Source: a virus (taxonomy: Duplodnaviria; Caudoviricetes). From it: 64,000 nucleotides of DNA. Below, piece after piece: positions 1,458 to 63,945 of the stretch. Every line of letters starts with the position of its first letter. Position 1 is the stretch's first letter. The stretch is taken from positions 32,001-96,000 of IMG/VR virus record IMGVR_UViG_3300013307_000671. One strand, given 5' to 3'. The translations under genes and the position numbers were made by a program. The notes under the pieces were generated by a model, which was not told the origin of the DNA, made no database searches, and saw nothing but the letters and a program-made list of their open reading frames with translations.

Positions 1458-1486
1458 TTATACATTGCCTTGTTGTCATGTACAAG
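1458..1486 (-). promoter_or_regulatory. sigma70 promoter of tRNA-DUF262 unit with GACAAYA box (1471-1479) in the spacer
   Basis: TTGTAC..TATAAT on minus strand; TGTTGTCAT in spacer. Confidence 0.7.
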
Positions 1487-1514
1487 CCTTTATTCGCATA
1501 AAGGCTATCTTCTT

Positions 1515-2006
1515 TTACTCTTTAGTCGAAAAATCAAACTCACCTAACGACAGGTTTCTTAAAACACTGGTGGTTCTCATGACCGTGCAGTCAAACTCAA
1601 TCAGGCCATCATCAAAAAACATGTTGACCTCATGACATTCCTTATCCTGCAGTTCGGCTTTGCTTTGCTCGATTTTTTCAGTCAAAGCAGCAAGTGAGCT
1701 ATTTACTTTCTCTTTTACCGTATCATCATCACAGACAATAACCGTATTTAACACAACTTTTTTAATATGATCATAAACATCAACATCAGAGCTTACCTTC
1801 TCATTGATATCTACAGCCTTATTATCAATCATATGCGCTTTCTTGTGATCAATGTTCAAATAAAGCACTAAATCGAAGCGAGAAGTTGCTTGCTTATGAC
1901 CTACCTGAGAATCCTGAAGCGATTTCAACAGGGCCTTAGCGCTTTCATTTTCAGGAGCCAACCGACATAAATCGATGAGTTCCTGAACGTTATATCTTGC
2001 TTTCAT
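1515..2006 (-). CDS. hypothetical protein
   Basis: 163 aa, GAGG RBS, operon with upstream ORFs. Confidence 0.7.
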   Translation of the reverse strand: MKARYNVQELIDLCRLAPENESAKALLKSLQDSQVGHKQATSRFDLVLYLNIDHKKAHMIDNKAVDINEKVSSDVDVYDHIKKVVLNTVIVCDDDTVKEKVNSSLAALTEKIEQSKAELQDKECHEVNMFFDDGLIEFDCTVMRTTSVLRNLSLGEFDFSTKE

Positions 2007-2012
2007 GCTTCC

Positions 2013-2423
2013 TCACTTTTTAAACTGAACAATATTGGTGGATAAGTTATTTTCTTTTTCTTGCTGAGCCATTAAAAACCGTGCAGTCTCAAAAATGTCA
2101 TCGCTGATTTCCAAAACGCCATACTTATGCTCAATGCCATCTACTTTAAAAATGTAATGACTAAAACCATTTACATGATAATCACCAGAAGCCAAAACCT
2201 GAGCCACTTTATATTTAAAAACCTCTGTCTTCCGGCGGCTGATTTCAAAATAATAATCAGACTTCTCCAAAAACAGTGCGATTTTCTTTTTAAATAAAAA
2301 TGGAAAATAGCGGTAGACGAAAGAGTATTTTAACATATTCTCGTAATAAAACTCTTTCGCCTCAATAAAGGCACGCTCTTGCTCTACGGTTAGCATGACA
2401 GGTTTAGGCAGAGTTAAAATCAT
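2013..2423 (-). CDS. hypothetical protein
   Basis: 136 aa, tight operon spacing. Confidence 0.65.
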   Translation of the reverse strand: MILTLPKPVMLTVEQERAFIEAKEFYYENMLKYSFVYRYFPFLFKKKIALFLEKSDYYFEISRRKTEVFKYKVAQVLASGDYHVNGFSHYIFKVDGIEHKYGVLEISDDIFETARFLMAQQEKENNLSTNIVQFKK

Positions 2424-2430
2424 TTCTCAA

Positions 2431-2784
2431 TTATCCTTTAAGGTCTTCGATCAATGCTGAAATCCAATTCTGGCATTTTATGACTTTATCCTGGATGGTA
2501 TTCCGGGATTGTTCAAAACGACTGTGATATCCCACATTATTTTTCTGTGATAGGGCCACTTCGGTCAATGCCTTCAACAGATCATCTTTATTGGCGATTT
2601 CAACTGAATCATGAGAAAGCGCTTTAAGCACATCATTCAGTTTTTGAAAGTTTTCCGCAGCCACATCAGAAATATTATATGCGTCGTTTTTCATAGAATA
2701 CATAGGCTCAGAAACTCCGCCCAATCCTTCTTTAACTTCATTTAATACCATATTATTTACTTTGCTCATATTTCCTCCGCTCAA
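2431..2784 (-). CDS. hypothetical helical protein
   Basis: GGAGG RBS suggests start at MSKVNN. Confidence 0.65.
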   Translation of the reverse strand: MSGGNMSKVNNMVLNEVKEGLGGVSEPMYSMKNDAYNISDVAAENFQKLNDVLKALSHDSVEIANKDDLLKALTEVALSQKNNVGYHSRFEQSRNTIQDKVIKCQNWISALIEDLKG

Positions 2785-3449
2785 TAGTTTAGCATTGCGA
2801 TGTGTTTGCCTTCAATGAAGCCTGGTAGCTCACACTCATCAGAAAAATCCTTGATACTACACCATGCCTCATAGTCGTCCTGACGCGTGATAAACGCCAG
2901 ATCAGCATGGATTTGATAACTTCTTGGATAGTTGGCTCTGAAGTTATATCGATCAATACGACACGCCGTGTTTTCCCATTCCTCAAACGCAAAGGTAATC
3001 ACTTCAACTTCAACTTCTGTCCTTACATAATCAGGCGTATATACGATGTCTTGACCTTCAAATGACAACGCATTCCATTTATCAAAAACATCCATTTGAA
3101 GTGAACTTAGATCAAATGATTTTCTATTATACCCGAAAGCCGCAGGTTTTGCCCAAAGCGCATCACCCACATAAACATACTCATCAAAATCTTTAGCGTC
3201 GATTTGCGTCATCAGGTCTTCCTGACACGACCACAGAGGCATAACCACTTTGCGTGAACCATAACGCTCTTTCAGAGCATCAAAGCTCCAGATAGAGTTA
3301 TACAGGTTTACATTGCTCTGACCTTCCGCATAATCCTCCATTAACTCAATAAAGGGATTGTCGTAAAAAGTCAGCACTTTTTTCTTTGTAAACGGCACTA
3401 CACTATCATCTCTGATATAAAGCTTAGTCTCTCCGTTATAACTCATCAT
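2781..3449 (-). CDS. hypothetical protein
   Basis: 222 aa, GAGAGG RBS. Confidence 0.75.
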   Translation of the reverse strand: MMSYNGETKLYIRDDSVVPFTKKKVLTFYDNPFIELMEDYAEGQSNVNLYNSIWSFDALKERYGSRKVVMPLWSCQEDLMTQIDAKDFDEYVYVGDALWAKPAAFGYNRKSFDLSSLQMDVFDKWNALSFEGQDIVYTPDYVRTEVEVEVITFAFEEWENTACRIDRYNFRANYPRSYQIHADLAFITRQDDYEAWCSIKDFSDECELPGFIEGKHIAMLNY

Positions 3450-3533
3450 CGCCTCTCTAACTATTATTTATTGCGACAATATACCATAATCATGTATTAC
3501 AAACAACAAAAAAGCAGCCGAAGCTGCTTTCTT

Positions 3534-4307
3534 TTATTTTCCTAACATCGTTGATAGTAAATACATCACGCTAGCCTTAGCCGAAACCACGTACTCTGGC
3601 TCAAGCTCAATAAAATTCGCATCACATCCCAAAGCAAACACCGAGTGTGTTGCTACGATTATCTGCAGGTCGTGCTCTTTAGCCGCTTTATCGAGCATAG
3701 CAAAAAGACGCTGCTGGACAGGCACTGCCAAACCTGATTCAGGCTCATCCAGTAAAATCGACTTCTGGCCTACTGGAATACGCGCCTCTAATAGTTTCGC
3801 CCTGTCTTCTTCGAGATACTGACGACTTATATTTTTGAACTTTACCTCATCAGCAATCTTATCATTGCCCGTTAAAATATTGACGATCTTACCCATCCGA
3901 TAAAGCGTCGTTTTACCCGTTGACTCGCTCAGCCGCAACTCCGCAATACCTTCTGACATGAAATCATCATCAAATGCCGCTGATCCACCAATCAAGCCAA
4001 CAGCCTCACGAGGATTACAATACATTGCTGGCTGTCCATCATGAAATACCTCAATCCCGTCAAGGTTCTCAAAACCAAACATGCTATTCCATTTATTCGT
4101 AACAACAGATTCGCCTGACTGCTTACAGGCCATAGACAAAGCCATCATCGACAAAATCGTTGATTTCCCCGTGCCGTTCGGAGCATAAATAATATTCAGG
4201 CCGGGTTTAAACTCGATTTTCTTGTTTTTCTTAAAGAAATCAAGTTTCGCAGCATAGCCAAACTCTTTGTTTTTATTCAGGCCTTTAAAAGCAATCTTAG
4301 AAAACAT
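3534..4307 (-). CDS. ABC/AAA-type ATPase
   Basis: Walker A APNGTGKST, Walker B LLDEPE, ATHS H-loop. Confidence 0.9.
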   Translation of the reverse strand: MFSKIAFKGLNKNKEFGYAAKLDFFKKNKKIEFKPGLNIIYAPNGTGKSTILSMMALSMACKQSGESVVTNKWNSMFGFENLDGIEVFHDGQPAMYCNPREAVGLIGGSAAFDDDFMSEGIAELRLSESTGKTTLYRMGKIVNILTGNDKIADEVKFKNISRQYLEEDRAKLLEARIPVGQKSILLDEPESGLAVPVQQRLFAMLDKAAKEHDLQIIVATHSVFALGCDANFIELEPEYVVSAKASVMYLLSTMLGK

Positions 4308-4356: not shown

Positions 4357-4368
4357 TTAAAGACAACA
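4357..4368. promoter_or_regulatory. GACAAYA box overlapping -35 of ATPase promoter
   Basis: TTAAAGACAACA. Confidence 0.7.
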
Positions 4369-5160: not shown

Positions 5161-5276
5161 AAATCCTCTCTTTTCTTTTTATTATGCCATTTCCTTATCC
5201 GCATTATCAAAAAAAAGCTTGATTGCCTTTCTCATTTACTCTATAATGACAACTCCAAATCAGAGAGGTTTATATC

Positions 5277-5558
5277 ATGTCTCATAAGTTTACTGAATCA
5301 GAAATGAGCGCTTTAAGCCAGCTTTCTCAGCAGCGATCTATTCTTATCTCTCAGATTCCTGACAAAAACATCAATGACCATCTTGATGGCCTGACAGCAG
5401 GTATGACAACCTATAAAAAGCTGATTAAGAAAGGTCTATGCCTTATTACTGAAGAAGATCCTGTTTTGTTTGATGGTGATGATGAAGAGTTTTATTTCAC
5501 ACCTTCCATTGAACTTACTGAAGAAGGTGAAAGCCTGATTAAAACACTTTCTTTTTAA
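5277..5558 (+). CDS. small winged-helix-like hypothetical protein
   Basis: GAGG RBS; L.KKGL...LTEEG wHTH-like pattern; promoter TATAAT fused to GACAAC box (5244-5253). Confidence 0.6.
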   Translation: MSHKFTESEMSALSQLSQQRSILISQIPDKNINDHLDGLTAGMTTYKKLIKKGLCLITEEDPVLFDGDDEEFYFTPSIELTEEGESLIKTLSF

Positions 5559-7048: not shown

Positions 7049-7215
7049 GTGATGCCCTTAGAAAGTTAGTTAGTCTTCGTATTAGGTTCATTATAACAAC
7101 AAGCACCAACATGCACAAGGCTTTATTGTCATTATTTATCTTATAAAGAGGCCTAGATGGATTGCGATGCTCTTATAAAGAAAAAAGAGCCAGTGATGGC
7201 TCTTTAATCGTTGTG

Positions 7216-12414: not shown

Positions 12415-13620
12415 TTAAAGATCTTCTTTATCTATACCTTCAAGTATTATCCTGAAACTAGTTTCATTTAAAATTATTGAGCAATACGCATATCTTCTAT
12501 TATAACCATTTTTTAAATCGCATATTTTCAACTTAACATGCCTATATTCTTTACTTAATATCGAATTACCATTCGAATACAAATTTAAATTATACGATAA
12601 CTCGTCATTAAATATTCTATTAAATAACAGGTAAGCATCAGTATAACCTTTATCGCTGATGCTTATACTCATAGCTTCCTGATTTATTTTGCCATACGTT
12701 ATCTTTTTATCAAAAAAAACAATATCTTTGATTGTATTTTCAAACATCCATAAAGCTATCTTTTTTAAAACAGTATAAAACTCCCGCTCATTTACACTCA
12801 ATGTAAAATTATCCAGATTTATTTTATTAGCTTCCTTGATAACATCTATCAGGATGCTGTTATTAATATTATCGTTATTAGACAATAGCTTATTATGAAC
12901 ACTCCATCCTTTTAAACCAGCGCATTTTGAAATCTCATTCAGAATAGCATTATGCTTTAATGTTGGATTTTTTTCTTTTATTTTAAAACTTAACTCTTTA
13001 ATGCTATCTTTATTAATAAATAAATCATCGTTAAAATCATGTAATGATTTTATTTGCTTATGTAATATGAAAAACTCTGACAAATATTGAGGATGTTTTT
13101 TATTATCCGAATAACATTGCATTATATTAAAATAGATAGAGTAAATATTTTTATTAATGGTTATACTGAAAGAATAACGAATAAGATCGGTAAGGCATTT
13201 ATCTTGCTTTAAGTTATTAATACCTGTCATTCTTTCAGCATGAAATCCCACAGCAGAGAGGCTTATCGCAGCATGATTGTTCTTTACATTTACCGCTCTA
13301 CCTCTGGATATCATTATTAGTTCTTTGGGCTTGCTCTCATAGTCGCAGATTCCGTTCACTTCCATCTTATCCATTTCCATTATCAAAGAAACAAGAGAAA
13401 TGTAATCACACTTAGAGAGGAATTTGTTATATTTTAAGCATAATGAATCATTCTTCTTATGCGATATTTTTTGCATAAGCTCATTAAAATCAGAATAGCC
13501 TTTTATTTGTGAAACAATATTTTTTATATGATAGGAATCGACACCTGTTTTGATGGCAATATTTTCAGCAAAAGTTGAAATATCTTGAGGGATGTTCTTT
13601 AGTGTTTTATTTAATAGCAT
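12415..13620 (-). CDS. AT-rich hypothetical protein with glyoxalase-superfamily-N-terminal-like helical repeats
   Basis: LKHNAILNEISKCAGLKGW and IKNIVSQIKGYSDF motifs; much lower GC than neighbours. Confidence 0.6.
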   Translation of the reverse strand: MLLNKTLKNIPQDISTFAENIAIKTGVDSYHIKNIVSQIKGYSDFNELMQKISHKKNDSLCLKYNKFLSKCDYISLVSLIMEMDKMEVNGICDYESKPKELIMISRGRAVNVKNNHAAISLSAVGFHAERMTGINNLKQDKCLTDLIRYSFSITINKNIYSIYFNIMQCYSDNKKHPQYLSEFFILHKQIKSLHDFNDDLFINKDSIKELSFKIKEKNPTLKHNAILNEISKCAGLKGWSVHNKLLSNNDNINNSILIDVIKEANKINLDNFTLSVNEREFYTVLKKIALWMFENTIKDIVFFDKKITYGKINQEAMSISISDKGYTDAYLLFNRIFNDELSYNLNLYSNGNSILSKEYRHVKLKICDLKNGYNRRYAYCSIILNETSFRIILEGIDKEDL

Positions 13621-16267: not shown

Positions 16268-16978
16268 TTAAATAAAACCTAAGAACATAGGATGTTCCAT
16301 CATTTTCTTATGATCGGCACTCAACTCAGACTCATCCATAATACTTTCCTTAGAAATATTAATGAAGAAGCCCTTCGCTTTAGAAACTGGCAGGTTCTTG
16401 CCATGAGGATTACAAAAATCACGCATGAAGTTGGTTTTATCCATTTCTGCTTCAACCTCAGCTAAACTCAGACGCGCAGCATCTTTCTGATCAAGTGTCT
16501 TTTCTTTTGAATAGATAATATTTTCCAGTGAATCAAGCTCTTTCTCCAGCTCAGCATAACGCTGCTCATAGCTGTTTTTAGAGTTAACCACACCACCACT
16601 TAACACGAAATCTTCTTTCTCGCGCTTATGGCTAAATGAGTTTCTCATACTAAAGCCCCAGCAGTAAGGCTTAACCTTAAATTGCTTCTGGATTTCGACT
16701 TTTTCAAATACAAACAGAATATCACCAAAACCACGAGAAACAGTCAGATCACGACTCATTGACCAGCCATACATCCACTTAGAATCTTCATAGGCAGCAT
16801 CGTTGTCTTTACGACGAATGCCATCAGCCCAAAAACGATGAGACGTGTGTGGCTCAAAATATCCCTGCTTAAGAATATCCAGAACGTGATGACCATTAAC
16901 ACCATGCCATAACACACCCTGACTATTCAGTTTCAGCAACTCAGCAGCAGAAATCTTTTTCATCATCTTTACTCTCAT
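16268..16978 (-). CDS. putative ADP-ribosyltransferase-fold protein (paralog of 28877..29554)
   Basis: LWHG, WSMSRD, EKED motifs in ART order. Confidence 0.5.
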   Translation of the reverse strand: MRVKMMKKISAAELLKLNSQGVLWHGVNGHHVLDILKQGYFEPHTSHRFWADGIRRKDNDAAYEDSKWMYGWSMSRDLTVSRGFGDILFVFEKVEIQKQFKVKPYCWGFSMRNSFSHKREKEDFVLSGGVVNSKNSYEQRYAELEKELDSLENIIYSKEKTLDQKDAARLSLAEVEAEMDKTNFMRDFCNPHGKNLPVSKAKGFFINISKESIMDESELSADHKKMMEHPMFLGFI

Positions 16979-17048: not shown

Positions 17049-17345
17049 TTATTCATCAAGAAGAGCAACTCGCTCCTCCACTGTGAGTTTCATCCAAGGC
17101 TCAACGCCTATCAATGCCCAGCCCAAAAAACTAAAATGCTTATTTGCTCTTGATAAAGACGTAGAGTAGGTTTCATCAAGTTTTAAATACCTTTTACTTA
17201 GTCCAAAAAAAGGAGCACGAATAGTTTTATTTGTGCGTGGGAACTCTTGATCTTGAACAAGAAAGTATTTTCTACGAAACTTTAACATAAGCAACTCTCT
17301 TTGAAAAGGAATAACTATCATATCAGACATTCCATTTAAAGACAA
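17049..17345 (-). CDS. hypothetical protein (start uncertain)
   Basis: ORF between two terminators; probable start downstream of the box at 17337. Confidence 0.45.
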   Translation of the reverse strand: MSLNGMSDMIVIPFQRELLMLKFRRKYFLVQDQEFPRTNKTIRAPFFGLSKRYLKLDETYSTSLSRANKHFSFLGWALIGVEPWMKLTVEERVALLDE

Positions 17346-17390
17346 TAAAAAAGACGCCGCAGCGTCTCTTTATGTTTGTTTTTCTTTTGA

Positions 17391-18469: not shown

Positions 18470-18715
18470 TTAGGCTTGTTCTGCTTTTTTCAGCTCATCA
18501 CGAACCGCATTGAAGCGAGAAACCGTTTTATAGATATACTGGCGAGAAACGTCGTATTTCTTAGCAGTTTCCACTACGTTACGTTGCTTCAGTAAAATGT
18601 CTTCCAGAATGTCATGCGTTCGAACAGCCCAACCCTCAAGCTTTGCGGTTACTTTCGCAAACTCTTCAGTGGTGATATTCGCAATGCTATTTGTGTCTTT
18701 TACAGGTTTTGCCAT
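18470..18715 (-). CDS. KorA/TrfB/ArdK-like HTH transcriptional repressor
   Basis: ITTEEF...T.DI....L......ETAKKYDVSRQYIYKTVSRF matches the KorA N-terminal HTH pattern. Confidence 0.7.
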   Translation of the reverse strand: MAKPVKDTNSIANITTEEFAKVTAKLEGWAVRTHDILEDILLKQRNVVETAKKYDVSRQYIYKTVSRFNAVRDELKKAEQA

Positions 18716-21567: not shown

Positions 21568-21678
21568 ACATTACCTCAGTATATTTAATAACGCATTATC
21601 TTTCTTGTTGTCATAAATGCAACAAAAAAGACGCCTGAGCGTCTCTTTTAAATCTTATGCTATACACAAAACTTAGAT

Positions 21679-22275
21679 TTACAGCGTTGGTTCGTTTTTA
21701 ATGATATGATTACACAATGTGTAATCTTCATCAACAATCTGATCACGCAGGAAATCGATAAAGCTTTTGTTTTCCTCAAGCACCTCATGAACAAACTCTC
21801 TTGAATAAACAACATCAATAAACTGCTGAAAACGCGCTTTAACCAAATCAGAATCGGGATCGGTGTATTTTCCCATCATGTCTTTGAGGATATTTGCAAC
21901 CTTATAGGTTTCCTCATAACTTACATTTCGGTAATTTAGATTATACAAAACATTTAATATCTCACCCGCATCAAGGATAGCATCTTCATTATATTCCATG
22001 CCATCATCCACTACAGGCTTAACTTTTACATCAAACGCAGCAATAGCCTTGCCCAGCGCTTCAAAAGGCGTAGAACCTTCCCACACAGATTCTCCATTTA
22101 GTGCGCTGAATGGAGGCTCAGTTTTACGCACAACCCATTGCGCTGCTTCACGCGCCTTTTTAGTCATAAAGCTTGGGCCAGAGTTATACGATAAAGACCA
22201 GCCAAAAAACATAGAAGCTACGATTTTATCTAACGCTTTATCATTCAGCCTATCAATCATAATCTTATCTCTCAC
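21679..22275 (-). CDS. hypothetical protein
   Basis: 198 aa, divergent from 22429. Confidence 0.7.
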   Translation of the reverse strand: MRDKIMIDRLNDKALDKIVASMFFGWSLSYNSGPSFMTKKAREAAQWVVRKTEPPFSALNGESVWEGSTPFEALGKAIAAFDVKVKPVVDDGMEYNEDAILDAGEILNVLYNLNYRNVSYEETYKVANILKDMMGKYTDPDSDLVKARFQQFIDVVYSREFVHEVLEENKSFIDFLRDQIVDEDYTLCNHIIKNEPTL

Positions 22276-22428
22276 TTAGTTAATTTACATTATTATACCT
22301 ACTTATGTTGTCGCATTCAATCTAAATTTATTTTATTTATTAAAAAATAGTTTATATAAAGACATTAAAAAGTTGACTTTAACCCGTTCTTTAGCTATAA
22401 TGGTTTCAACTTAACAGGAGATACGACG

Positions 22429-23274
22429 ATGAAATATGATTTTTTCCTAAGTGGCCTGGATGAGCCTTTCAAGCAAAAAACCATTGAGGCTATTAAGGTT
22501 ATTGAAGATGCCAGCGCTTCGGGATCTATTCGCAATGTGGTATACAACGATGCTAAAGATACTCTAAATCGCGCCTGTTATCGTGCTGATAAAAAACTCA
22601 AGCCAGATTATAACTACGAAGAATGCTCTTACGACCTGCGTGCTTTTATTGACAATACTGGCTACATTGACAGTCTCCATAACATTATCTCTCTTCGCAA
22701 GAAAGTTGAAAAAACGAAAGAGCGTGCGCCTCTGGTTGTCTATTATGATCGTATCTCTGCAGAGCTTTTCGATTTAGCTCTCACAATGAAAGACTTAAAA
22801 TCTAAAGTCGTAAAAGGCCGTGATCCTAACAAAAAACCCGCGCCTCCGGCAAACCCTAATAAAATCGTGAAAACTTGCGGGTGCTGCCTGCGTCAGATTG
22901 CCATTAGCAAAGATAAAAAAATGGTTCATCACGGCTTTGAACGTCCCGGCGATGGATATCAGACAGATTCTTGCGCAGGCATCAACTTTAAATACCTGGA
23001 AATCTCTGATGATGGCCCTCGCCATATGGTTAAAACTATCAGTGAGATGATTGAAAAAGAAAAGCAGAATCTGGAAAACTTCAAAGCTGCTAAAACGTTT
23101 AGCTTTCTGAACTACAATAAGAAATGGACCACAATCAATGAAGGCGATAATGGCTTTAATTCTTATAAAGAGAATATGATTTCTCGCCAAACCTATCACA
23201 TCAAAGCTCTTGAGCGTGATCTTGAAACGTTTAACAAGATTGTCAAAGAATGGAAGCCTACAGAAAACGAATAA
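22429..23274 (+). CDS. putative Zn-binding hypothetical protein
   Basis: TCGCC.R...HHGFERPG.GYQT.SC.G; TTGACT-17-TATAAT promoter, AGGAG RBS. Confidence 0.8.
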   Translation: MKYDFFLSGLDEPFKQKTIEAIKVIEDASASGSIRNVVYNDAKDTLNRACYRADKKLKPDYNYEECSYDLRAFIDNTGYIDSLHNIISLRKKVEKTKERAPLVVYYDRISAELFDLALTMKDLKSKVVKGRDPNKKPAPPANPNKIVKTCGCCLRQIAISKDKKMVHHGFERPGDGYQTDSCAGINFKYLEISDDGPRHMVKTISEMIEKEKQNLENFKAAKTFSFLNYNKKWTTINEGDNGFNSYKENMISRQTYHIKALERDLETFNKIVKEWKPTENE

Positions 23275-23363
23275 AGGAAAGCCACCATGAGGTGGCTTTT
23301 TATTTTACTCTCGTTCAGGCTGATATTTTCAGATAAAACAAAAGCTCCAGAGGGCTTTCAATT

Positions 23364-23603
23364 TTAAGTCTCATCATCACCTTTTAAAACAAGTTTCCGC
23401 GTGGCGGCTTTTGCGTTAGCACGAATACGTGTTCTTACAAACTTCTTCGCTCCACGTTTAGACTTCGCAATCATGCGGCTGTTTCCATCGCAGTCGATAG
23501 AGGCGTGGGCCACAACCGATTCTCCACCTACGCTTACTTTTGTCAAATATCCCTGACGCCATTTCTTACGGATTTTGTCATCACGGGCATTCTGCTTATT
23601 CAT
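23364..23603 (-). CDS. small basic protein, paralog of 23596..23976
   Basis: MNKQNARDDK...KRGAKKFVRTRIRANAKAAT. Confidence 0.7.
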   Translation of the reverse strand: MNKQNARDDKIRKKWRQGYLTKVSVGGESVVAHASIDCDGNSRMIAKSKRGAKKFVRTRIRANAKAATRKLVLKGDDET

Positions 23604-23976
23604 TTTCAACACCTTTTTTAGCAAGACGTTGAGTTGCTGCATTCGCATTTGCACGAATACGCGTTCTTACGAACTTCTTGGCTCCACGCACAGACTTTGC
23701 CATACCGCGATGACCATTACAGTAATCATTACCAATCCATGCTCTAGCAGTGATGATTTCATCACCTACTTTCGCACGATCTCCCCAGCCATGCATAGAT
23801 TTATCAAGCTGATCCGTATTACCCACCCGCTGAATATTACCTCGCACTGGCTTATTCGCATCTTCACGACCGCGCTGTTCAGGCTCGTCAGGCCAACAAC
23901 CAAATCCGTTATTATATCGCACGTGACGCTGGTTTTTAGGCGCTTTATTCTTACGCCTGTGATTAATGTCAGTCAT
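23596..23976 (-). CDS. small basic protein
   Basis: ...VRGAKKFVRTRIRANANAAT; GAGGA RBS. Confidence 0.7.
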   Translation of the reverse strand: MTDINHRRKNKAPKNQRHVRYNNGFGCWPDEPEQRGREDANKPVRGNIQRVGNTDQLDKSMHGWGDRAKVGDEIITARAWIGNDYCNGHRGMAKSVRGAKKFVRTRIRANANAATQRLAKKGVENE

Positions 23977-23978
23977 TA

Positions 23979-24100
23979 CTATCCTCGCTTTAAAACGCTT
24001 TTCCGGCGCTTCTGTTTGATTTTAGATTTCGGCTTACTGCGACCCGCTTCAACATCAGAAAGCTTTTTAGGCTGACCAATTTTCTTCGCAAAAGCCTTAC
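23979..24100 (-). pseudogene. orphaned 3' end of the cREC gene 25829..26173, cut off by IscB element
   Basis: start-less frame KAFAKKIGQPKK...VLKRG* rejoins in frame with ..DAPYR when 24101-25836 is removed. Confidence 0.7.
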
Positions 24101-24143
24101 CGAAATATCGAAGCCTCGCTCCTTGGAGCAGTGTCTATACATC

Positions 24144-27532: not shown

Positions 27533-27781
27533 TTATTTAAAAAGATTGCCTGTGTAAACGTTCTGAAGATAGTTCCCACCAATATACGGAGAACGCGCCC
27601 GCTTCACATTGACATAACCACGCTTTTCCAGCTTGCTCACCAGAGAAGCTACGCGCTGACGACTCATACCGAGCTTTTCGCCCATATCACGCAAAGACAT
27701 CTCTTTTTTCGTCAGCAGGTTATACAAGTTAGCTTTCATCAGAACATCCTCATTGCTGTTTATGTTGTCATAATACATCAA
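27533..27781 (-). CDS. winged helix-turn-helix DNA-binding protein
   Basis: MSLRDMGEKLGMSRQRVASLVSKLEKRGYV; probable start MKANL (27739) after GAGGA; box at its -10 (27763-27773). Confidence 0.8.
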   Translation of the reverse strand: MMYYDNINSNEDVLMKANLYNLLTKKEMSLRDMGEKLGMSRQRVASLVSKLEKRGYVNVKRARSPYIGGNYLQNVYTGNLFK

Positions 27782-28166: not shown

Positions 28167-28385
28167 CTTTATCGCCTCTCAGCCTGTTTCGATAAAAAGA
28201 GTATAGCAATAAACCCGCTCAGTAACAACTCTTTTGTTGTCATTTACATGGCTTTACTTAAAAACGCCCATGCAGTGTCCCAAGCTCAACAAAATAGCCA
28301 GCTCTACAGCGTGAACTGCTATAATTTTAATATACATACTCATGATACGTCCTCAAAAAAAATACCGCCCGAAGGCGGCATTAGG

Positions 28386-30919: not shown

Positions 30920-30991
30920 CTTAAAAAGATATGCGTCGATTTGATAAAGCGAGTATACGCCTTAATGACAATATTGGCAAGATTTTTATGT

Positions 30992-33695: not shown

Positions 33696-33740
33696 GTTTC
33701 AATAAAAGAAGTATACCCATTAATGACAACACAAGCAAGC
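33696..33740 (-). promoter_or_regulatory. promoter with ATTGAAAC leader and consensus box TAATGACAACA (33721-33731)
   Basis: gtttcaat-aaaaga-agtata-cccat-taatgacaaca-caagcaag. Confidence 0.75.
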
Positions 33741-41098: not shown

Positions 41099-41185
41099 TC
41101 CTCTCTACAAGATAAAAAGAGTATAGCATTTCTCCATATTAATGACAACAAAAAAGAGGCGCTAGCCTCTTTTTCTCCAGTCAGG

Positions 41186-41668
41186 TTAATCTACTTTGCG
41201 GATTGGAATCGCCGGTTTGGGCATTATGAAATCTTCCAAGACCTCATACAATTCGACTTCTTCAACAACACGGCAGAACTCGCCTTCATATTCTACGGGA
41301 TAATGTAGAATATTTTCGGTGAGCCAGTCATAAAAATCACCTCCATCCATATCTTCCCATACATCCTGGATATAACCGCTTAGAGCAACCTTCTGATCTT
41401 CATCAGTAATCTTCTCTTCCAAAGCCTCAATAATCAACTCTTTTAACTCTTCTGAATCCTCATACTCTTTGTTCCCAAAGCCAGGATTAGGTCGGTCGTT
41501 TTTTGATCGGAACATTTTACCAATAGTCATCAACACCAACGCTTCAGCTTTGGTCTTAACATTCGTCTGAACACTACGATAGTTGTCCGCATCATTCTCC
41601 CAAGACGTGAACACAACCAGATAACCTTTATCAAGCTTTTCCCCTGGATTTAACTTTACATCGTTCAT
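41186..41668 (-). CDS. acidic phage-type hypothetical protein
   Basis: GY.V..TSWENDADNY motif. Confidence 0.75.
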   Translation of the reverse strand: MNDVKLNPGEKLDKGYLVVFTSWENDADNYRSVQTNVKTKAEALVLMTIGKMFRSKNDRPNPGFGNKEYEDSEELKELIIEALEEKITDEDQKVALSGYIQDVWEDMDGGDFYDWLTENILHYPVEYEGEFCRVVEEVELYEVLEDFIMPKPAIPIRKVD

Positions 41669-41688
41669 TTTATTTCCTTTATTGTTTG

Positions 41689-42378
41689 TTAAAAAATATC
41701 GTCTTTATTCCAACCCAGCAATGCTGCCAGAAATGACCGTGTTTTTTCGGAGTATTTCTGATCGCTATTATCACCATGAATGATGTAATACACTTTGCGG
41801 GCAATCACCACATAAACAAACAGGAACGGCACGAACCACAGACGGTTGAAACGCTGCAGCTTGCTGGCATCGTCTGCCTGATTATTACTTTTTACGATGT
41901 AATACTTCGCATAGCGATCATCGTATTCATTTGGGAACAGAAAATCGTATAAATCATACAGCGTCTTAACGTTGTTCTCGCTCAGAACAAACAAGAACTC
42001 TTCACGGCTAAGAGTTTTCTGCCAACCACCTTTGTAGCCACTCGCCTTAGCCACAAACTCTTCACCGATAAGACGTGCCACCCACTGACCTGCAGGCGTT
42101 CTTTCATCAAAGCCCGTATATCCCGTCATCACATAACGCACGGGCGCAATGAAAATCCAGAAGACTAACGTGAACCAGATGCGATTAAGACGTTGTTGAA
42201 GCGTTGTAGGGGCATTGCCACGAGTTTTATCTACAATGTTATATGAACTACTGATTTTATCATCACCGTCATACAAGGCGTTTACAGCATCATCCAGCGT
42301 TTCTGCTTTTTCCTTTTTCAAAAGCGCATCCAAACCATAACGAGACAGCTCATGTTGCCATTTTTGAACAAAAAACAT
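41689..42378 (-). CDS. membrane-associated protein with internal tandem duplication
   Basis: two copies of WQ..LSR...Y.IV...LQ.R.NR.WF...Y...G. Confidence 0.75.
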   Translation of the reverse strand: MFFVQKWQHELSRYGLDALLKKEKAETLDDAVNALYDGDDKISSSYNIVDKTRGNAPTTLQQRLNRIWFTLVFWIFIAPVRYVMTGYTGFDERTPAGQWVARLIGEEFVAKASGYKGGWQKTLSREEFLFVLSENNVKTLYDLYDFLFPNEYDDRYAKYYIVKSNNQADDASKLQRFNRLWFVPFLFVYVVIARKVYYIIHGDNSDQKYSEKTRSFLAALLGWNKDDIF

Positions 42379-44987: not shown

Positions 44988-45068
44988 TTTGACAATCCCA
45001 TTCTCGTTTCGATAAAAACAGTATAGGCTTTAATGACAACAACGTCAATCTTTTTTTACCGCGATATG

Positions 45069-45592: not shown

Positions 45593-45678
45593 TACACCTC
45601 TTAAATCAATAGTATGCTGTCATTATAGTGTGATTTGTATCACAAAAGCAATAGGACGTTTCGTAAAGATTTAAAAAG

Positions 45679-57055: not shown

Positions 57056-57298
57056 ATGAACGCATCAGATAGCAAACAACTTAACATCGCTATAGACATC
57101 TTCAGGCGCGATCCTGAGAGGCTTAAAGACTTGTTTATGACCGGACGACTGAGATTATCCTCAGAGCCAATGTATGTGCTTTATCTTCACTATATAGCAA
57201 ACATCAGCTTTAAAGATATTGCCTATGATGAGCGTGCTGATGAAATAATAAAGAACATTGCCAAACGGTTTTTAGCCATTAAAAAAGCCACTTTATAG
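57056..57298 (+). CDS. hypothetical protein
   Basis: AAGGAG RBS, bidirectional terminator downstream. Confidence 0.65.
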   Translation: MNASDSKQLNIAIDIFRRDPERLKDLFMTGRLRLSSEPMYVLYLHYIANISFKDIAYDERADEIIKNIAKRFLAIKKATL

Positions 57299-59679: not shown

Positions 59680-60708
59680 CTAAGCAGCTAAAGAAGCCCA
59701 TTTTTCATGAATAATCTCTTTGCCATAAAACACACATCCATAGCCATTTTCTTCAATGACTTCCAGCATGTGATCAATAGCTTTCTCTATATCTTCATTA
59801 AACTTTATCCTAAGCAAACTAATGCCACGAGACTCACAATAACGGTTTTTTATCTCGTCGTTTCTCTTCTGACTCAGAAACCCTTCAGTTCCACCAAAAG
59901 CATCAACTTTAGTAAAATGCTGCTTACCATCAAACTCAATCAACAGGTTTAATGATTCAATATAGAAATCAAACTTGAGCCTAACGCCGTTTTTACTGCG
60001 ACATCCAATGAACTTCGCTTGCTCTTTAAACGATAAACCGTAGCCATTCAAAGCATTTGCTACAGCCGTTTCACCTTTCGAGGCGCGGCATTTAGGGCAA
60101 CCATCACCACAAAGATGATTTCCCGCCTTCTGAGAAAACTCTCCGTGAATACCACAGATAATCAATACTTTTTGGTGCGAAGATGTATACACAACTTTGC
60201 TGTAATCATATTTACCATGATGCACATCTATCGCTTTTTCGATGAAGGCCTCTGCGTCAGATCTGATAGCATCATATTGACAAGCCCGGCAACCTTTTCC
60301 ATTCAAATGCTCTCCGGCACGCTGCTCAAAATCCCCATGTTTCTCACATGTGATTGTAACCTTCTTTTTATTATTCACGTAAACTACTTTTTCATAAGAA
60401 TAACGTGAACCATGAACAGCAATAGCTCTACTCACGAAATCTGATTCTACTCTTTTCTCTCTCGAACATGCATAGCAAGACCTGCCTGCTAAATGCTCGT
60501 TAGCACGCTGCTCAAACAAGCCATGCTTTTCACACTTAATCTTAACTTTCGTGCCGCTGTTTACATAAACAGTCTCTTCATAGCCATACAGGTCGCCATG
60601 AATGGCAACCGCTCGCCTAATAAATTTTTCTGTTTTCTCACACATAAGCCACCAAAGCCACCTCATTTTAACTTCCTTCATTATAGCAATATAATATTGT
60701 CTTTTCAA
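59680..60708 (-). CDS. DUF723-repeat, Vsr/PD-(D/E)XK-type (homing-like) endonuclease
   Basis: three FI..A..VHG..Y.Y...V.I.C..HG.F.Q....HL.G..C..C repeats; SKGE, FDFY, IEFDGKQH. Confidence 0.85.
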   Translation of the reverse strand: MKRQYYIAIMKEVKMRWLWWLMCEKTEKFIRRAVAIHGDLYGYEETVYVNSGTKVKIKCEKHGLFEQRANEHLAGRSCYACSREKRVESDFVSRAIAVHGSRYSYEKVVYVNNKKKVTITCEKHGDFEQRAGEHLNGKGCRACQYDAIRSDAEAFIEKAIDVHHGKYDYSKVVYTSSHQKVLIICGIHGEFSQKAGNHLCGDGCPKCRASKGETAVANALNGYGLSFKEQAKFIGCRSKNGVRLKFDFYIESLNLLIEFDGKQHFTKVDAFGGTEGFLSQKRNDEIKNRYCESRGISLLRIKFNEDIEKAIDHMLEVIEENGYGCVFYGKEIIHEKWASLAA

Positions 60709-62425: not shown

Positions 62426-62464
62426 AACTTAAGCATTAAAAAAGCAGCCTCGGCTGCTTTTTAT

Positions 62465-62653
62465 TTATTCTTCGATTGGCTTCCACTTCAAAATAACATC
62501 GTTATCTGAAAAAGGCCGACACCCACCAAACCAATGACCACGCTTAAATAAACGCACGGCCTCCAGCTCGCGATCACCGCGCTCAATCAAACACTGATAC
62601 TTGCCATCCTCTTCAGGAAGACGCTCACTTACAATAATCCAATCCTGACTCAT
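62465..62653 (-). CDS. DUF551-like protein
   Basis: WIIVSERLPE...W.P. Confidence 0.7.
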   Translation of the reverse strand: MSQDWIIVSERLPEEDGKYQCLIERGDRELEAVRLFKRGHWFGGCRPFSDNDVILKWKPIEE

Positions 62654-62862
62654 TTGGACTCACCTGTCATCAGAACACCATAGTCGGCATTTAGCCCTGA
62701 CTCGCCCATCAAGGCTATTTCGCGCTTCCAGTAAGCCACAATGGTGCGAGAATCTAACTGATTAATGTGAGGCACTACATTCGCCAGAGCTTCTGTATTT
62801 AAACTCTGATACCAGCGCATTGCCTGACCTATTTCTGACTCAACTTTGATTTCCGCTTCCAT
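62650..62862 (-). CDS. hypothetical protein
   Basis: GAGG RBS, ATGA overlap. Confidence 0.6.
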   Translation of the reverse strand: MEAEIKVESEIGQAMRWYQSLNTEALANVVPHINQLDSRTIVAYWKREIALMGESGLNADYGVLMTGESK

Positions 62863-62950
62863 TATGTCTACCTCATTTGTTTATTCGTGCTCATTATAAC
62901 CAACAAATGACAATGAAGCAACAAAAAAGCCGCCCGAAGGCAGCTTCTTT

Positions 62951-63304
62951 TTATTTGATAACTTTGAGCGATCCGGCACTGTAGTTGAACAGAATGCTGC
63001 CTTGTGCCATATAATAGAACATCTTCGCAATTTGATAATCCTGACCATCAGGCAGAGTCGCAACCTGTTTCTGACGCTTATCCATTTCTTCTTTGGCATC
63101 TTTCTTTAAAGACAGACCATACAGTGGCGTTCCATCACAATCACGCCCATGATGAACAACAAAAAGACGCAGACCTGTATCATCATCATTTTCATCACCC
63201 AAAATCTCTACCAGTGAACCGAGTGGAATGGTATGGCTCTGTTCCATTTTGTTTTGCTTCACAGTTTTACCATTTGACTCAACAATATCGGATACATTGA
63301 TCAT
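62951..63304 (-). CDS. phage-type hypothetical protein
   Basis: H.IPLGSLVE...RLFVV.H.RDCDGTPLY. Confidence 0.75.
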   Translation of the reverse strand: MINVSDIVESNGKTVKQNKMEQSHTIPLGSLVEILGDENDDDTGLRLFVVHHGRDCDGTPLYGLSLKKDAKEEMDKRQKQVATLPDGQDYQIAKMFYYMAQGSILFNYSAGSLKVIK

Positions 63305-63350
63305 TTCTAAAGCCTCTTATTTGAAAGGAGTTTCTGGTTAAAACACATGT

Positions 63351-63593
63351 TCAGCGATTATGATTAGCAATCAGCACCTGATCCATTGTTTCCAGATTCG
63401 TGTAAAGCACGTCTTTATTCGCCTTAACATCTTTCATCAGGCAAATATGACTTTCGTCTTCATAGGGTTTGCAACGCTGAAGCAATACGTTTAAAGAAGA
63501 TTCTTCACCTTTAAACACTTTCTGCTCTACCGGATTGCCATTGCTCAGCACATATAACAACGCAATTTCAATAATCATACTTGCTTGCCTCAA
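63351..63593 (-). CDS. hypothetical protein
   Basis: box-bearing promoter (63634-63644). Confidence 0.5.
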   Translation of the reverse strand: MRQASMIIEIALLYVLSNGNPVEQKVFKGEESSLNVLLQRCKPYEDESHICLMKDVKANKDVLYTNLETMDQVLIANHNR

Positions 63594-63669
63594 CGCCCTA
63601 TCAGGAATGACTCATTATAACTTTATTCCTCATTAAAGACAACAAAAAACCACCCGAAGGTGGCCTTTT

Positions 63670-63945
63670 TTAGCTATTAAAGTATTTACGCTCTTCGCCC
63701 AGCACCTCAGCCAGAATACCGCGATATGCTTTATCTTCTGTCTGGAAAGGATTTGGCAACCAGCCACCATCGACATAGGCAACAAAGTAGTTCGGCCCCT
63801 CTTTGACCACCTCAAACTCATCCGCAAGTTCGATAACCTTATCCATCACTTCGTTTTCATCTAAGTCAGCAAACAGAGTCGTCATTTTCTTCACCTTAGT
63901 TCGTTTCAATAAAGCTATTATAAAGACAACACATATCCAAATCAA
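63670..63945 (-). CDS. acidic hypothetical protein
   Basis: probable start MTTLF; ATTGAAAC leader and box 63921-63931. Confidence 0.65.
   Translation of the reverse strand: MIWICVVFIIALLKRTKVKKMTTLFADLDENEVMDKVIELADEFEVVKEGPNYFVAYVDGGWLPNPFQTEDKAYRGILAEVLGEERKYFNS

Follow-up and report, generated by a model that had tools for sequence, protein, structure and literature searches.

The DNA analysed here is a stretch of 64,000 nucleotides (the window) on a 134,908-bp contig (G000; 39.8% G+C), which is itself one piece of a giant phage-like virus record in IMG/VR. The contig encodes homing endonucleases, a NinI-like phosphatase, SSB, a PsiE-family protein (Pfam) and PHROG families common to large myoviruses; any Pfam match at all was obtained for 15 of the 105 window ORFs. 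The original prediction had viewed the element in a plasmid frame (IncN/IncP-like), which does not hold, as the contig is a virus record with phage genes and with terminator-promoter cassettes like those of T4-type phages. The promoters, predicted from sequence, are otherwise ordinary host-type ones, and many of them come straight after an intrinsic terminator. For comparison, a relative was used, G001 (341 kb, 30.6% G+C, about 50% amino-acid identity).

Many of these promoters share a short box. Read in the direction of the gene, it is a single asymmetric motif of about 12 bp, TRTTGTCWTWAA, carried by about 45 window promoters and by about 80 on the whole 135-kb contig. The information content around all TTGTC sites is limited to positions -2 to +9 in both G000 and G001, and no second half-site was found there at any fixed distance. 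In a literature search on the motif words, the 25 matches listed out of 5,555 were primer noise and gave no description of the motif, in agreement with the earlier remark that it is not recognised as a described operator.

The recurrence of the box noted earlier is confirmed, and it is far more frequent than expected by chance. WAWGACAAYA (TRTTGTCWTW on the other strand) has 35 matches in the window versus 1.89 expected (shuffle maximum 6), and TAATGACAACA with at most one mismatch has 33 versus 1.85 (maximum over 100 shuffles, 5). Contig-wide, 79 WAWGACAAYA ten-mers were counted, compared with a mean of 6.2 (maximum 15) for 30 permuted-box controls. Intergenic DNA makes up 14.5% of the contig, and 69 of the 79 boxes lie outside crude ORFs; 64 are forward and 15 reverse. 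When a weight matrix was built from 83 G001 sites alone, it gave 53, 45 and 35 window sites at 10, 12 and 14 bits, respectively, while five dinucleotide shuffles of the window gave 5-13, 0-5 and 0-1, so the earlier estimate of about 45-50 sites was right. All 42 positions first listed as close copies have a box within 1 nt (mismatches to the 11-mer: none in 6, one in 22, two in 9 and three in 5), and the eight listed as variants have one mismatch in 4, two in 2 and four in 2. The 45 sites at 12 bits, 18 of which are reverse, are given below with the bit score of each site and with promoters assigned by a sigma70 scan; class A denotes a forward box in the spacer (-28) and class B a forward box abutting the -10 (-20).

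4357..4368, minus: box TGTTGTCTTTAA, forward, is the -35 (T1 at -37), TTGTCT-N17-TATAGT; 17.4 bits
5243..5254, minus: box AGTTGTCATTAT, reverse to plus-strand gene 5277-5558, over its -10/+1; 13.0 bits; TATAATGACAACT
7124..7135, plus: box TATTGTCATTAT, reverse, immediately upstream of a TTGTGC -35; 17.0 bits
8144..8155, minus: box TGTTGTCATAAC, forward, spacer (-28), TTGTAT-N17-TATACT; 15.8 bits
8435..8446, minus: box, forward, is the -35, adjoining a terminator T-run upstream; 12.6 bits
14712..14723, minus: box, forward, is the -35; 13.8 bits
15788..15799, minus: box TGTTGTCATTTA, forward, is the -35; 18.7 bits
16987..16998, plus: box, reverse, covers the -10/+1 (TATAATGACAACA) of gene 16268-16978; 19.4 bits; G001 orthologue arranged alike
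17336..17347, minus: box, forward, is the -35, terminator before; 15.8 bits
19682..19693, minus: weak variant TGATGTCATAAT, without assigned promoter; 13.0 bits
21222..21233, plus: box, reverse, spacer beside the -35 (TTGATTAAGACAACA); 14.5 bits; kept at G001 orthologue
21606..21617, plus: box, reverse, terminator before, no promoter from the scan; 17.4 bits
22646..22657, minus: weak match within ORF 22429-23274, probably chance; 12.1 bits
27763..27774, plus: box, reverse, covers the -10/+1 of the winged-helix gene; 19.3 bits; kept in 6/6 relatives
28235..28246, plus: box, reverse, precedes a -10 by about 50 nt; 16.4 bits
28851..28862, minus: variant TGTTGTCAGTAA, forward, spacer (-28); 13.8 bits
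29577..29588, plus: weak variant, reverse, over the -10 of the promoter using box 29603 as -35; 13.6 bits
29603..29614, minus: box, forward, is the -35; 17.7 bits; kept at G001 orthologue
30962..30973, minus: box, forward, spacer (-28), class A; 16.9 bits
31781..31792, plus: box, reverse, covers the -10/+1 of gene 31417-31758; 15.3 bits; kept at G001 orthologue
33720..33731, minus: box, forward, spacer (-28), class A; 18.8 bits
35843..35854, plus: box, reverse, over the -10/+1; 20.6 bits
36606..36617, plus: box, reverse, over the -10; 15.4 bits
37229..37240, minus: box, forward, is the -35, terminator before; 17.4 bits
38216..38227, minus: box, forward, overlaps the -10 (T1 at -10); 19.8 bits
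39567..39578, plus: box, reverse, spacer of the promoter using box 39577 as -35; 14.5 bits
39577..39588, minus: box, forward, is the -35; 16.1 bits
41139..41150, minus: box, forward, is the -35, terminator before; 18.7 bits
43136..43147, minus: box, forward, abuts the -10 (-20), class B; 17.5 bits
43985..43996, minus: box, forward, near the start codon, promoter assignment doubtful; 18.8 bits
45030..45041, minus: box, forward, spacer (-28), class A; 19.6 bits; kept at G001 orthologue
45615..45626, plus: variant, reverse, over the -10/+1; 14.8 bits
46311..46322, plus: variant TGTTGACATTAT, reverse, over the -10/+1; 14.2 bits
46950..46961, minus: box, forward, no promoter from the scan; 18.0 bits
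47211..47222, minus: box, forward, overlaps the -10; 19.8 bits
48744..48755, plus: weak match within an ORF, probably chance; 12.4 bits
49826..49837, minus: box, forward, is the -35, terminator before; 17.4 bits
50645..50656, plus: variant, reverse, spacer; 14.6 bits
53798..53809, plus: variant, reverse, over the -10/+1; 13.4 bits
56743..56754, minus: box, forward, is the -35; 15.7 bits
58205..58216, minus: box, forward, abuts the -10 (-20), class B; 16.1 bits
59659..59670, plus: box, reverse, spacer; 14.1 bits
60695..60706, plus: box, reverse, spacer beside the -35; 13.2 bits
63633..63644, minus: box, forward, is the -35, terminator before; 16.1 bits
63920..63931, minus: box, forward, abuts the -10 (-21); 16.8 bits

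The sigma70 scan placed 54 of the 79 contig boxes within -45..+5 of a promoter-like site, versus 14% of control matches; the remaining boxes (27 listed) belong by eye mostly to identical promoter types with a -35 under the scan threshold. In both orientations, the box occupies the -35 hexamer itself or the spacer, abuts the -10, or covers the -10/+1. The placements first proposed were borne out on the -35 (4357, 41140), in the spacer (33721, 45031), on the -10/+1 (16987, 27763, 35843) and, in forward orientation, on the -10 at 38217. Relative to the -10, the registers are the same in G000 and G001: -37/-38 (where the TTGTCA of the box is the -35), -28, -20/-21 and -7 for forward boxes, and about -30 and -9 for reverse ones. 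All the main registers fall within the polymerase footprint, and nearly all boxes lie inside core promoters, from about -38 to +3. The registers -20, -7 and -9 are incompatible with activation, and the pattern fits steric repression rather than an activator site or a core promoter element, as the original prediction had argued. The registers are few and discrete, whereas one might expect a more even spread from an operator that works by steric hindrance alone; this discreteness may reflect common descent of promoter families and sequence compatibility with the hexamers.

Could the box be an intrinsic promoter element, that is, a lineage-specific extended -35/spacer signal for RNA polymerase or a polymerase-bound phage factor, which strengthens or marks its own promoters with no repressor involved? 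The largest class does use the box as its -35 (boxes at -36 to -38 in 19 of the 54 promoter-overlapping cases in G000 and 20 of 72 in the right part of G001). Part of the box signal could thus be promoter sequence, since the box of this commonest class is a -35-like hexamer, TTGTCA. The canonical TTGACA is rare as a -35 in this element, and in the SSB promoter the box takes the variant form TGTTGACTTTAA, with a -35 close to consensus. However, the same 12-mer also occurs at -28, -20 and -7, and reversed at -30 and -9, and no polymerase contact is known to read one sequence at six registers on both strands. Classes A and B, by reading of their sequences, have no -10-like hexamer 16-18 bp downstream of the box. 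Of the sites of the commonest promoter type, TTGTGC-N16-18-TAnnMT, the box is carried by 1/33 in the left 190 kb of G001, 10/27 in its right part and 4/19 in G000. Since some 30 similar promoters of the left part lack it, the box is dispensable for promoter function; it is supported as a mark on a subset of promoters. An intrinsic element is thus an unlikely explanation. T4 MotA offers a partial parallel, as it recognises a 9-bp phage-specific box in otherwise sigma70-dependent middle promoters. The Mot box (TGCTT in PMC4122927), however, keeps a constant spacing to the -10 and stands in for the -35 in activation, whereas the present box uses at least six registers in two orientations.

The box is conserved in the relative and confined to one region of its genome. 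In G001, it is restricted to the 150 kb syntenic with G000; in the left 190 kb, where similar promoters are present, it is unenriched (13 versus 13.0 for permuted controls). Among 154 reciprocal-best-hit pairs, 26 have the box in both genomes, 22 in G000 alone, 22 in G001 alone and 84 in neither. Sharing by orthologous promoters exceeds chance (odds ratio 4.5, p = 6e-5), with identical orientation in 23 of the 26 shared pairs, while turnover is high because 44 of the 70 pairs with a box have it in one genome alone. A conserved host transcription factor, tying element genes to host physiology, would allow the box to be kept across elements of 39.8% and 30.6% G+C. Winged-helix regulators of the OmpR/PhoB type would be the likeliest family: their 11-bp unit, CTGTCAT followed by an A/T tail, resembles the box, TTGTCATTAA nearly matches a single Pho-box unit, and G000 carries the PsiE-family gene. 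But PhoB-type sites are tandem repeats and no second unit was found, whether at a distance of 11 bp or at another fixed spacing, the reverse and -10/+1 boxes misfit PhoB-type activation, and three other large enterobacterial phages, GAP32, CBB and fHe-Yen9-04, show no enrichment (9, 8 and 16 matches versus 19, 18 and 21 for the reversed control). We regard a host-factor site as quite improbable.

The setting of the boxes also recalls the PeSLs of T4-type phages, in which an intrinsic-terminator hairpin and then a sigma70-type early promoter precede many small ORFs in plastic regions (PMC4122927), and at which related genomes differ (PMC4122927, PMC2839356); the likeness is one of cassettes, not of lineage placement. 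In its available text, PMC4122927 presents PeSLs as mediating modular shuffling and as terminator plus promoter alone, with no extra multi-register box. Contigs of related strains likewise break or join at the terminator-promoter cassettes here (e.g., near 28870, 30992-31018, 33753-33760 and 38728). The box could then be a DNA-level signal apart from promoter control, for cassette recombination, for nicking or priming, or for a genome-organising protein, found in promoters as they are the sole non-coding DNA; the hairpin/T-run/promoter arrangement and the 64:15 orientation bias suit this idea. Recombination, however, requires shared length rather than a 12-mer, and the flanks are near random: within a promoter class, pairwise identity is 0.86-0.87 for the box and 0.84-0.91 for the -10, compared with 0.29-0.36 at neighbouring positions and 0.26 for random pairs. 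Because conservation is limited to box and hexamers, cassette duplication is disfavoured and selection on the box itself is indicated. A promoter-independent signal would not require exact core-promoter registers conserved across genomes, and the left 190 kb of G001 has like intergenic DNA with no enrichment. We consider this reading very unlikely.

The reading that we hold to be probable, if only just, is that TRTTGTCWTWAA is the operator of a sequence-specific repressor which occludes core promoters, is most likely encoded by the element and binds as a monomer. The box, its enrichment, its registers, its regional confinement and its conservation at about 50% amino-acid identity are direct observations, from which we infer binding by a protein, repression through that binding, and a candidate for the binder. 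Because the boxes sit within the stretch that RNA polymerase must occupy, the bound protein would exclude the sigma70 holoenzyme or prevent open complexes from forming. This would apply to about 45 window promoters, to about 80 across G000 and to a comparable number in G001.

Two recognisable HTH proteins were found among 261 crude ORFs scanned:

27533..27739, minus: 68-aa winged-helix protein with a MarR-like core (Pfam MarR_2, 4.2e-7)
18470..18715, minus: 81-aa HTH protein, second candidate, with weak KorA/HTH_28 likeness (Pfam matches all under cut-off)

The winged-helix protein is the leading candidate for the box binder, judging from its gene and sequence. It is 68-71% identical in relatives, with helix 3 (recognition) and the wing invariant, and a reverse box covers the -10/+1 of its own gene in 6/6 relatives, as expected under autoregulation. 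An AF2 model has moderate confidence (pLDDT 67.6). The link to the box is weakened by several further genes that also have a reverse box over the -10, by the very small size of the protein, and by the normal habit of the MarR type to bind palindromes as dimers. In the 81-aa protein, the stretch VSRQYIYKTV is identical in G001. No homologue of either protein was found in the phage collection searched, which, like the lack of box enrichment in GAP32, CBB and fHe-Yen9-04, counts in favour of the repressor reading; both are equally lineage-restricted, which does not discriminate between them. A KorA-like regulator is not supported, its sole match scoring 20.0 bits against a Pfam cut-off of 26.7. 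An identical winged-helix protein is present on a 368,640-bp contig, and the binder may instead be encoded in a part of the genome absent from G000.

The logic of such a network would resemble that of the operator networks of P1 C1 and L5, at three to four times the size. P1 is a plasmid-prophage. Its C1 repressor acts at 22 operators, whose asymmetric consensus is 17 bp long (PMC8546580); as here, asymmetric operators are scattered over a large phage genome and control separate transcription units, but they differ in sequence, length and number (three to four times more sites here). Kor operators are palindromes, unlike the present box. ArdK/CUP (IncN) and KorA/KorB (IncP), the precedents named in the original prediction, share the logic of one repressor acting on several early or establishment promoters and its own gene, but with a handful of sites and on conjugative plasmids rather than a phage-like element. 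ArdK is described as binding CUP elements, one of which overlaps its own promoter (PMC6289460).

The L5 comparison raises a further possibility, namely that the bound protein, in the manner of an L5 'stoperator', mainly halts elongating polymerase in one orientation of the site, insulating small genes from read-through instead of blocking initiation. L5-type sites are described as present in more than 20 copies over the genome, some in promoters, biased in orientation with transcription and halting elongation in an orientation-dependent manner (PMC9283540). The gp71 site of mycobacteriophage L5 is likewise asymmetric and monomer-sized (13 bp versus about 12 bp here), and many boxes here directly follow a terminator, with the same bias towards transcription (64:15). 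Here, however, there are about 80 sites in 135 kb, nearly all of them in core promoters and few in promoter-less gaps, 15/79 on the contig and 18/45 in the window are reversed, and strong intrinsic terminators already precede many of them. The host-type promoters here have a proteobacterial style, this element showed no recognisable two-domain repressor of the L5 kind, and the element is a giant from an apparently separate phage lineage. A mainly roadblock role is quite unlikely, and would be compatible with the operator-repressor reading.

Under the repressor reading, the winged-helix protein, if it is the binder, would contact TTGTC through the major groove while its wing contacts the A/T tail, and it would be autorepressing. 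The right-hand block of small unknown genes, 135-150 kb in length and in the original prediction a putative establishment/anti-host programme, would fire upon entry of the DNA into a cell without the protein. It would then be shut down jointly as the protein builds up, or, should the element be able to persist in cells, would stay silent. If this is true, one switch would turn off a very large block of unknown genes together.

The recurrent promoter motif (hereafter the box) is real and stands well above chance, as the original prediction had it. In the window, TAATGACAACA with at most one mismatch is found 33 times versus 1.85 expected, and WAWGACAAYA 35 times versus 1.89. A weight matrix trained solely on 83 sites of the relative genome G001 recovers 45 window sites at 12 bits, versus 0-5 in five dinucleotide shuffles; these 45 make up the window parts list with promoter context. 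All 42 coordinates that had been named as close matches carry the box: 6 match it exactly, 22 differ at one base, 9 at two and 5 at three. Six of the eight named variants carry it too, at up to two mismatches. No description of the motif appeared among the literature matches listed, which were primer or barcode noise.

The window comprises bases 32,001-96,000 of one 134,908-bp contig (G000; 39.8% G+C), whose G-C skew is constant at about -0.2 and whose minus strand carries 228 of the 261 ORFs obtained by crude ORF calling, most of them encoding 60-250 aa. Pfam matches at E <= 0.001 were obtained for 15 of 105 window ORFs, and PHROG matches for 17 of 68 larger ORFs. The phage-like genes include homing endonucleases (RRXRR/HNH at 24144-25442 and phrog_559-type at 59680-60708), a NinI-like phosphatase and SSB, and the contig has families in common with GAP32, CBB, and Aeromonas and Serratia phages at 27-36% identity. 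Because the recognisable genes are phage-like and the record is an IMG/VR virus (classed "provirus", CheckV completeness estimate 64%), the plasmid frame in which the box had been placed is not supported. A terminase search with PF03237 found nothing in the G000 and G001 records, which are fragments or trimmed, but did detect the family in 5 of 14 control genomes; gp23 PF07068 matched neither record nor any control genome and is uninformative. An identical copy of a winged-helix protein discussed below sits on a 368,640-bp contig, so the G000 contig is a fragment. Pieces of the window gave no near-identity DNA match in phage and plasmid collections, from which records close to it may be missing, and a 613-aa protein likewise gave none.

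Read in gene direction, the box is TRTTGTCWTWAA. When all TTGTC occurrences are pooled from both strands (n = 282 in G000; n = 258 in the right part of G001, the 150 kb syntenic with G000), information is confined to positions -2 to +9, and no second half-site is seen at any distance in either. The box is therefore a single asymmetric site, about 12 bp long, which occurs 79 times in G000 and 83 times in the G001 right part. Although intergenic DNA is just 14.5% of the contig, 69 of the 79 ten-mers lie outside the crude ORFs, and the top intergenic 8-mers include the box words TGTTGTCA and TTGTCATT, words of GC-rich terminator hairpins (CCTTCGGG, CCTCCGGG and GGCTTTTT) and words of their T-runs. 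The ratio of forward to reverse copies relative to the genes is 64:15 in G000 and 27:18 in the window.

Intergenic regions consist of an intrinsic terminator followed by a sigma70-type promoter, and the box occupies a small set of registers within the latter.

Registers of the box within promoters (relative to the -10)
Class C: terminator T-run, TGTTGTC(A/T)TTAA, ~13 nt, TATAAT; the TTGTCA of the box is the -35 hexamer (T1 at -37/-38), with N17 to TATAAT
Class A: AAAAAGCTTGC...TGTTGTCATTAA....TATACT, 6 nt, ATTGAAAC; the spacer is taken up by the box (T1 at -28)
Class B: CTTGTGCA, 8 nt, TGTTGTCATATAAT; the box adjoins the -10 and reaches into it (T1 at -20/-21)
Class D: TATAATGTTGTCAT; the box extends over -7 to +3
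Reverse copies, -35 type: TTGATTAAGACAACA; the box adjoins the -35 (~-30)
Reverse copies, -10 type: TATAATGACAACA; the box lies over the -10 and start site (~-9)

By a simple promoter scan, 54 of the 79 G000 boxes lie within -45 to +5 of a promoter-like site, versus 14% of the matches of 30 permuted-box controls. Among 27 unassigned boxes, most belong by eye to class A, B or D, with a -35 (TTGCAC, TTGCGC and similar) under the scan threshold, and a few boxes lie just 5' of a -35. The plus-strand gene starting at 5277 is also preceded by a box, at 5243-5254, in matching orientation.

The commonest promoter -35 is TTGTGC(A) in G000 and in both parts of G001, canonical TTGACA being rare, and in both genomes the -10 often has a C before it (gCTATACT, gcTATAAT). 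Among sites of the form TTGTGC-N16-18-TAnnMT, a box accompanies 1 of 33 in the left 190 kb of G001, 10 of 27 in its right part and, by the strict 9-mer, 4 of 19 in G000. Since most TTGTGC-type sites have no box, host-type promoters in this lineage work without it. The box marks a subset of promoters, a putative regulon tied to one genome region.

Two further readings of the arrangement were considered and rejected. In classes A and B, the box might be the -35 of a second, tandem promoter; 17 bp downstream there is either TTTATT/TTTATC, which lacks the essential A at position 2, or nothing resembling a -10, and the reading fails. The boxes might also descend from simple duplication of one cassette. 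However, pairwise identity in class C is 0.86 for the box and 0.84 for the -10 versus 0.36 for the rest of the spacer and 0.32-0.34 for the flanks, and in class A it is 0.87 (box) and 0.91 (-10) versus 0.29 at neighbouring positions, random pairs giving 0.26. The box and hexamers are thus conserved between near-random flanks, and copying of one cassette is impossible because the same 12-mer occurs at six registers and on both strands.

Two further features of the cassettes were observed. A conserved ATTGAAAC/ATCGAAAC element lies 6 nt past the -10, near the expected start, in class A and B promoters such as 33690-33705 (minus strand) and 45000-45015 (minus strand); it is common to G000 and G001, and may act as a second control site or belong to the initial transcribed sequence. 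Many promoters immediately follow a GC-rich hairpin with a CTTCGG/CTCCGG-type loop and a T-run, for example at 33740-33790 and 41150-41185, in a PeSL-like terminator-promoter arrangement.

Every box register falls inside the RNA polymerase footprint. A MotA-type activator box sits at a fixed distance to the -10 and replaces the -35, whereas the present box takes six or more registers and occurs in both orientations. Its registers at -20, -7 and -9, and its presence in either orientation, are irreconcilable with a MotA-type box, with a classical activator or with contact by the polymerase. The Pho box of PhoB consists of two 11-bp direct-repeat units at the -35. The box differs from it in carrying no information 11 bp to either side and in having several registers and reverse copies. 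We lean, by a modest degree, towards the box being the operator of a putative repressor, which would occlude the core promoter. This steric repressor operator, as in the original prediction, is the simplest reading and the best explanation. The site, being single, asymmetric and 12 bp long, suggests a protein that binds as a monomer, which would set one reading head on TTGTC and make a second contact on the A/T tail. Winged-helix domains of the PhoB/OmpR type have such a reading head and second contact, and we infer a like arrangement here. The few discrete registers may arise in part from compatibility of the box sequence with the hexamers: TTGTCA could serve as a -35, and the A/T tail could blend into TATAAT or into the last part of a -35.

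Conservation of the box was followed in relatives. G001, an IMG/VR record of 341,648 bp (30.6% G+C; CheckV estimate 97%), was found by searching with the class A promoter pattern. Its right 150 kb gives a blastp match for 161 of the 261 G000 ORFs, mostly at 30-70% identity, with 154 reciprocal best hits. The whole of G001 has 96 ten-mers versus 24 for a reversed-pattern control; the right part has 83, where permuted controls give 10.2, and the registers there match those of G000, while the left 190 kb shows no enrichment (13 versus 13.0). Across the 154 orthologue pairs, the box lies upstream in both genomes in 26, in G000 only in 22, in G001 only in 22 and in neither in 84 (odds ratio 4.5, p = 6e-5), and its orientation is the same in 23 of the 26 pairs that have it in both. 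Two metagenome contigs near G001 (L031, L032) carry 14 boxes each in 16.7 kb, and two near G000 (L029, L030) also have boxes. No enrichment was found in GAP32, CBB and fHe-Yen9-04 (9, 8 and 16 matches versus 19, 18 and 21 in controls).

Besides G001, the class A pattern matched two short viral contigs. One of them, G002 (6.1 kb, 27.8% GC), has no protein in common with G000 or G001 and was set aside as a chance match. An apparent second motif in the left half of G001, TTAGTGTTA, reduces to (GTTAGT)n, a hexanucleotide repeated in a long tandem array near 57.1 kb (~57,080-57,190). Among 121 ORFs scanned in the left 190 kb, no capsid, terminase or polymerase family was recognised. This region (L009-L018) encodes five type IVb pilin (PilS/bundlin-like) paralogues, a full-length MutS, an MCP-signalling-domain protein, a cation efflux protein, a Ro/TROVE-like protein, an RNA ligase, a PcfJ-like protein and a DNA methylase.

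The closest known systems in logic are the L5-type repressor and P1 C1 networks. The L5-type repressor is a monomer whose asymmetric 13-mer sites, over twenty in number, lie both in promoters and in gaps between genes, in an orientation tied to transcription (PMC9283540). The box is likewise a single asymmetric signal of about 12 bp in many copies. Its orientation is less strict than that of L5 sites, and 54 of 79 boxes overlap a predicted core promoter, with most others doing so by eye, whereas many L5 sites lie in promoter-less gaps. The gp71-like L5 repressor has an HTH and a "stoperator" domain in about 183 aa. P1 C1 has 22 dispersed asymmetric 17-bp operators (PMC8546580); these are of the ATTGCTCTAATAAATTT type, and the box is shorter and unrelated in sequence. 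The box system differs from both networks in sequence, in site number (~80 on a 135-kb fragment) and in element, and its sites are nearly all built into core promoters and include reverse copies. PeSL cassettes of T4-type phages also place a terminator stem-loop directly before a sigma70-type early promoter, repeated ahead of small ORFs; the accessible text describes no extra box in them (PMC4122927). The plasmid regulons ArdK/CUP and Kor, which had been offered as precedents, fit less well: ArdK/CUP has a handful of sites (PMC6289460), and KorA PF16509 scores 20.0 bits on the 80-aa protein at 18470-18712, under the cut-off of 26.7.

Pfam and PHROGs scans of the 261 crude ORFs recognised only two HTH proteins, both small; a third lead lies outside the window.

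Candidate binding proteins
27533-27739, minus strand: 68-aa winged-helix protein, Pfam MarR_2 at 4.2e-7 over residues 18-60
18470-18715, minus strand: 80-81-aa HTH protein downstream of ssb, weak KorA and HTH_28 matches, all below cut-off
Contig 12571-13173, minus strand: 200-aa conserved protein, 80% identical to its G001 orthologue

Four relatives have the 68-aa protein at 68-71% identity, and neither helix 3 nor the wing varies. Its AF2 model (pLDDT 67.6) has three helices (H5-9, H16-23, H27-39) and a hairpin; in fold it weakly resembles the DNA-binding domains of MarR, ArsR and BirA (E from 0.018, TMq 0.5-0.6). In six of six relatives, a reverse box covers the -10/+1 of the gene's promoter, as autoregulation would predict. 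MarR-family repressors combine a winged helix with N- and C-terminal dimerisation helices and bind a palindromic operator; the 68-aa protein is a winged-helix core without dimerisation helices, and the box is not palindromic. We regard it as a possible but rather unlikely binder of the box. Its distant matches (L033-L049) are ordinary full-length MarR genes or unrelated, show no box enrichment and are useless for covariation.

In the 80-81-aa HTH protein, the second helix is identical in G001, and a PDB profile search returned nothing below E = 0.2. Neither HTH protein has a homologue in the phage collection, so distribution cannot discriminate between them. The 200-aa protein is among the best conserved between G000 and G001 and has no family match. 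Its AF2 model shows two helix-helix-helix-hairpin repeats at a pLDDT of 53.7, too poor for searching; Atlas matches were all below 0.9 and the PDB profile search was empty. Judging from this model, a two-domain DNA-binding protein is possible, and its likeness to the two-domain L5 repressor is by analogy only.

Sequencing runs that contain at least half of the sampled words of 27000-36900 are plant-associated and food metagenomes, plus one coded organism. RNA-library contigs of one study (runs X10, X16, X11) match 29, 28 and 30 of 30 bins over 22000-41900 at ~90-99% identity, these being multi-kb contigs that cannot show starts, strand, transcription or even RNA material. Contigs from one run of "organism A" cover the same interval at 90-99% identity. 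In related strains, contigs end or are joined at promoter cassettes, near 28870, 30992-31018, 33753-33760 and 38728, in agreement with cassette-mediated shuffling, and the genes between cassettes appear to vary from strain to strain. Over 22000-41900, word depth in run X2 (151 million letters, coded organism name) is flat at ~47-63, apart from one bin at 32, by which the element would be a minor part of the run; it could persist in a cultured host.

Several individual loci deserve mention. The RRXRR/HNH gene (24144-25442, minus strand) is a mobile insertion: it is 89% identical to a non-syntenic G001 copy at 88391-89686, G001 has at least two such genes, and the related strains of X10, X16 and X11 skip from 24097 to 25835 with 118 other letters instead. 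Adjacent small cREC_REC (cyclic-phosphate processing receiver) proteins at 25829-26170 and 26231-26593 (minus strand) are conserved in G001. Contig 29966-32102 (window up to 102) is a local gene triplication, with three tandem paralogues of 230-241 aa that all match the G001 gene 225101-225838. A GmrSD_N-like domain protein (826-1344, minus strand) and an AAA_23/AAA_21 ATPase (3534-4304, minus strand) are defence or anti-defence-like genes among the predicted box-controlled set. A tRNA-Arg(TCT) gene lies at 1366-1442 (minus strand), and by eye a near-identical tRNA-like sequence occurs at contig ~3.1 kb, upstream of ORF 2916-3077.

What would be new here is the design of many asymmetric operators on a much larger scale, in an undescribed lineage of giant phage-like elements. 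Tentatively, and with considerable doubt, we propose that ~80-100 separate host-type promoters on a phage-like element of 368 kb or more are silenced by one 68-aa monomeric winged-helix protein, or another element-encoded protein, acting at an asymmetric 12-bp operator, which would be built into the -35, spacer, -10 or start site. The switch would be either early-gene shut-off in a giant lytic phage or the silencing of a giant element that persists in plant-associated bacteria; if true, this would be a single-operator regulon larger than any known for a mobile element.

Giant phages have small genes by the hundred whose functions are unknown, and how these are scheduled is poorly understood where the host polymerase is used. 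From sequence alone, the motif partitions the genome into ~150 kb with a common control site and, in the relative, another half without it, and supplies a defined set of genes, a sequence for probing and two or three proteins named as candidates. It is also a practical marker for spotting fragments of the lineage in metagenomes. If one small protein closes ~80-100 promoters, it would be a compact, portable global switch, and the P1/L5 style of many asymmetric operators would reach a far larger scale and take in proteobacterial giant phages.
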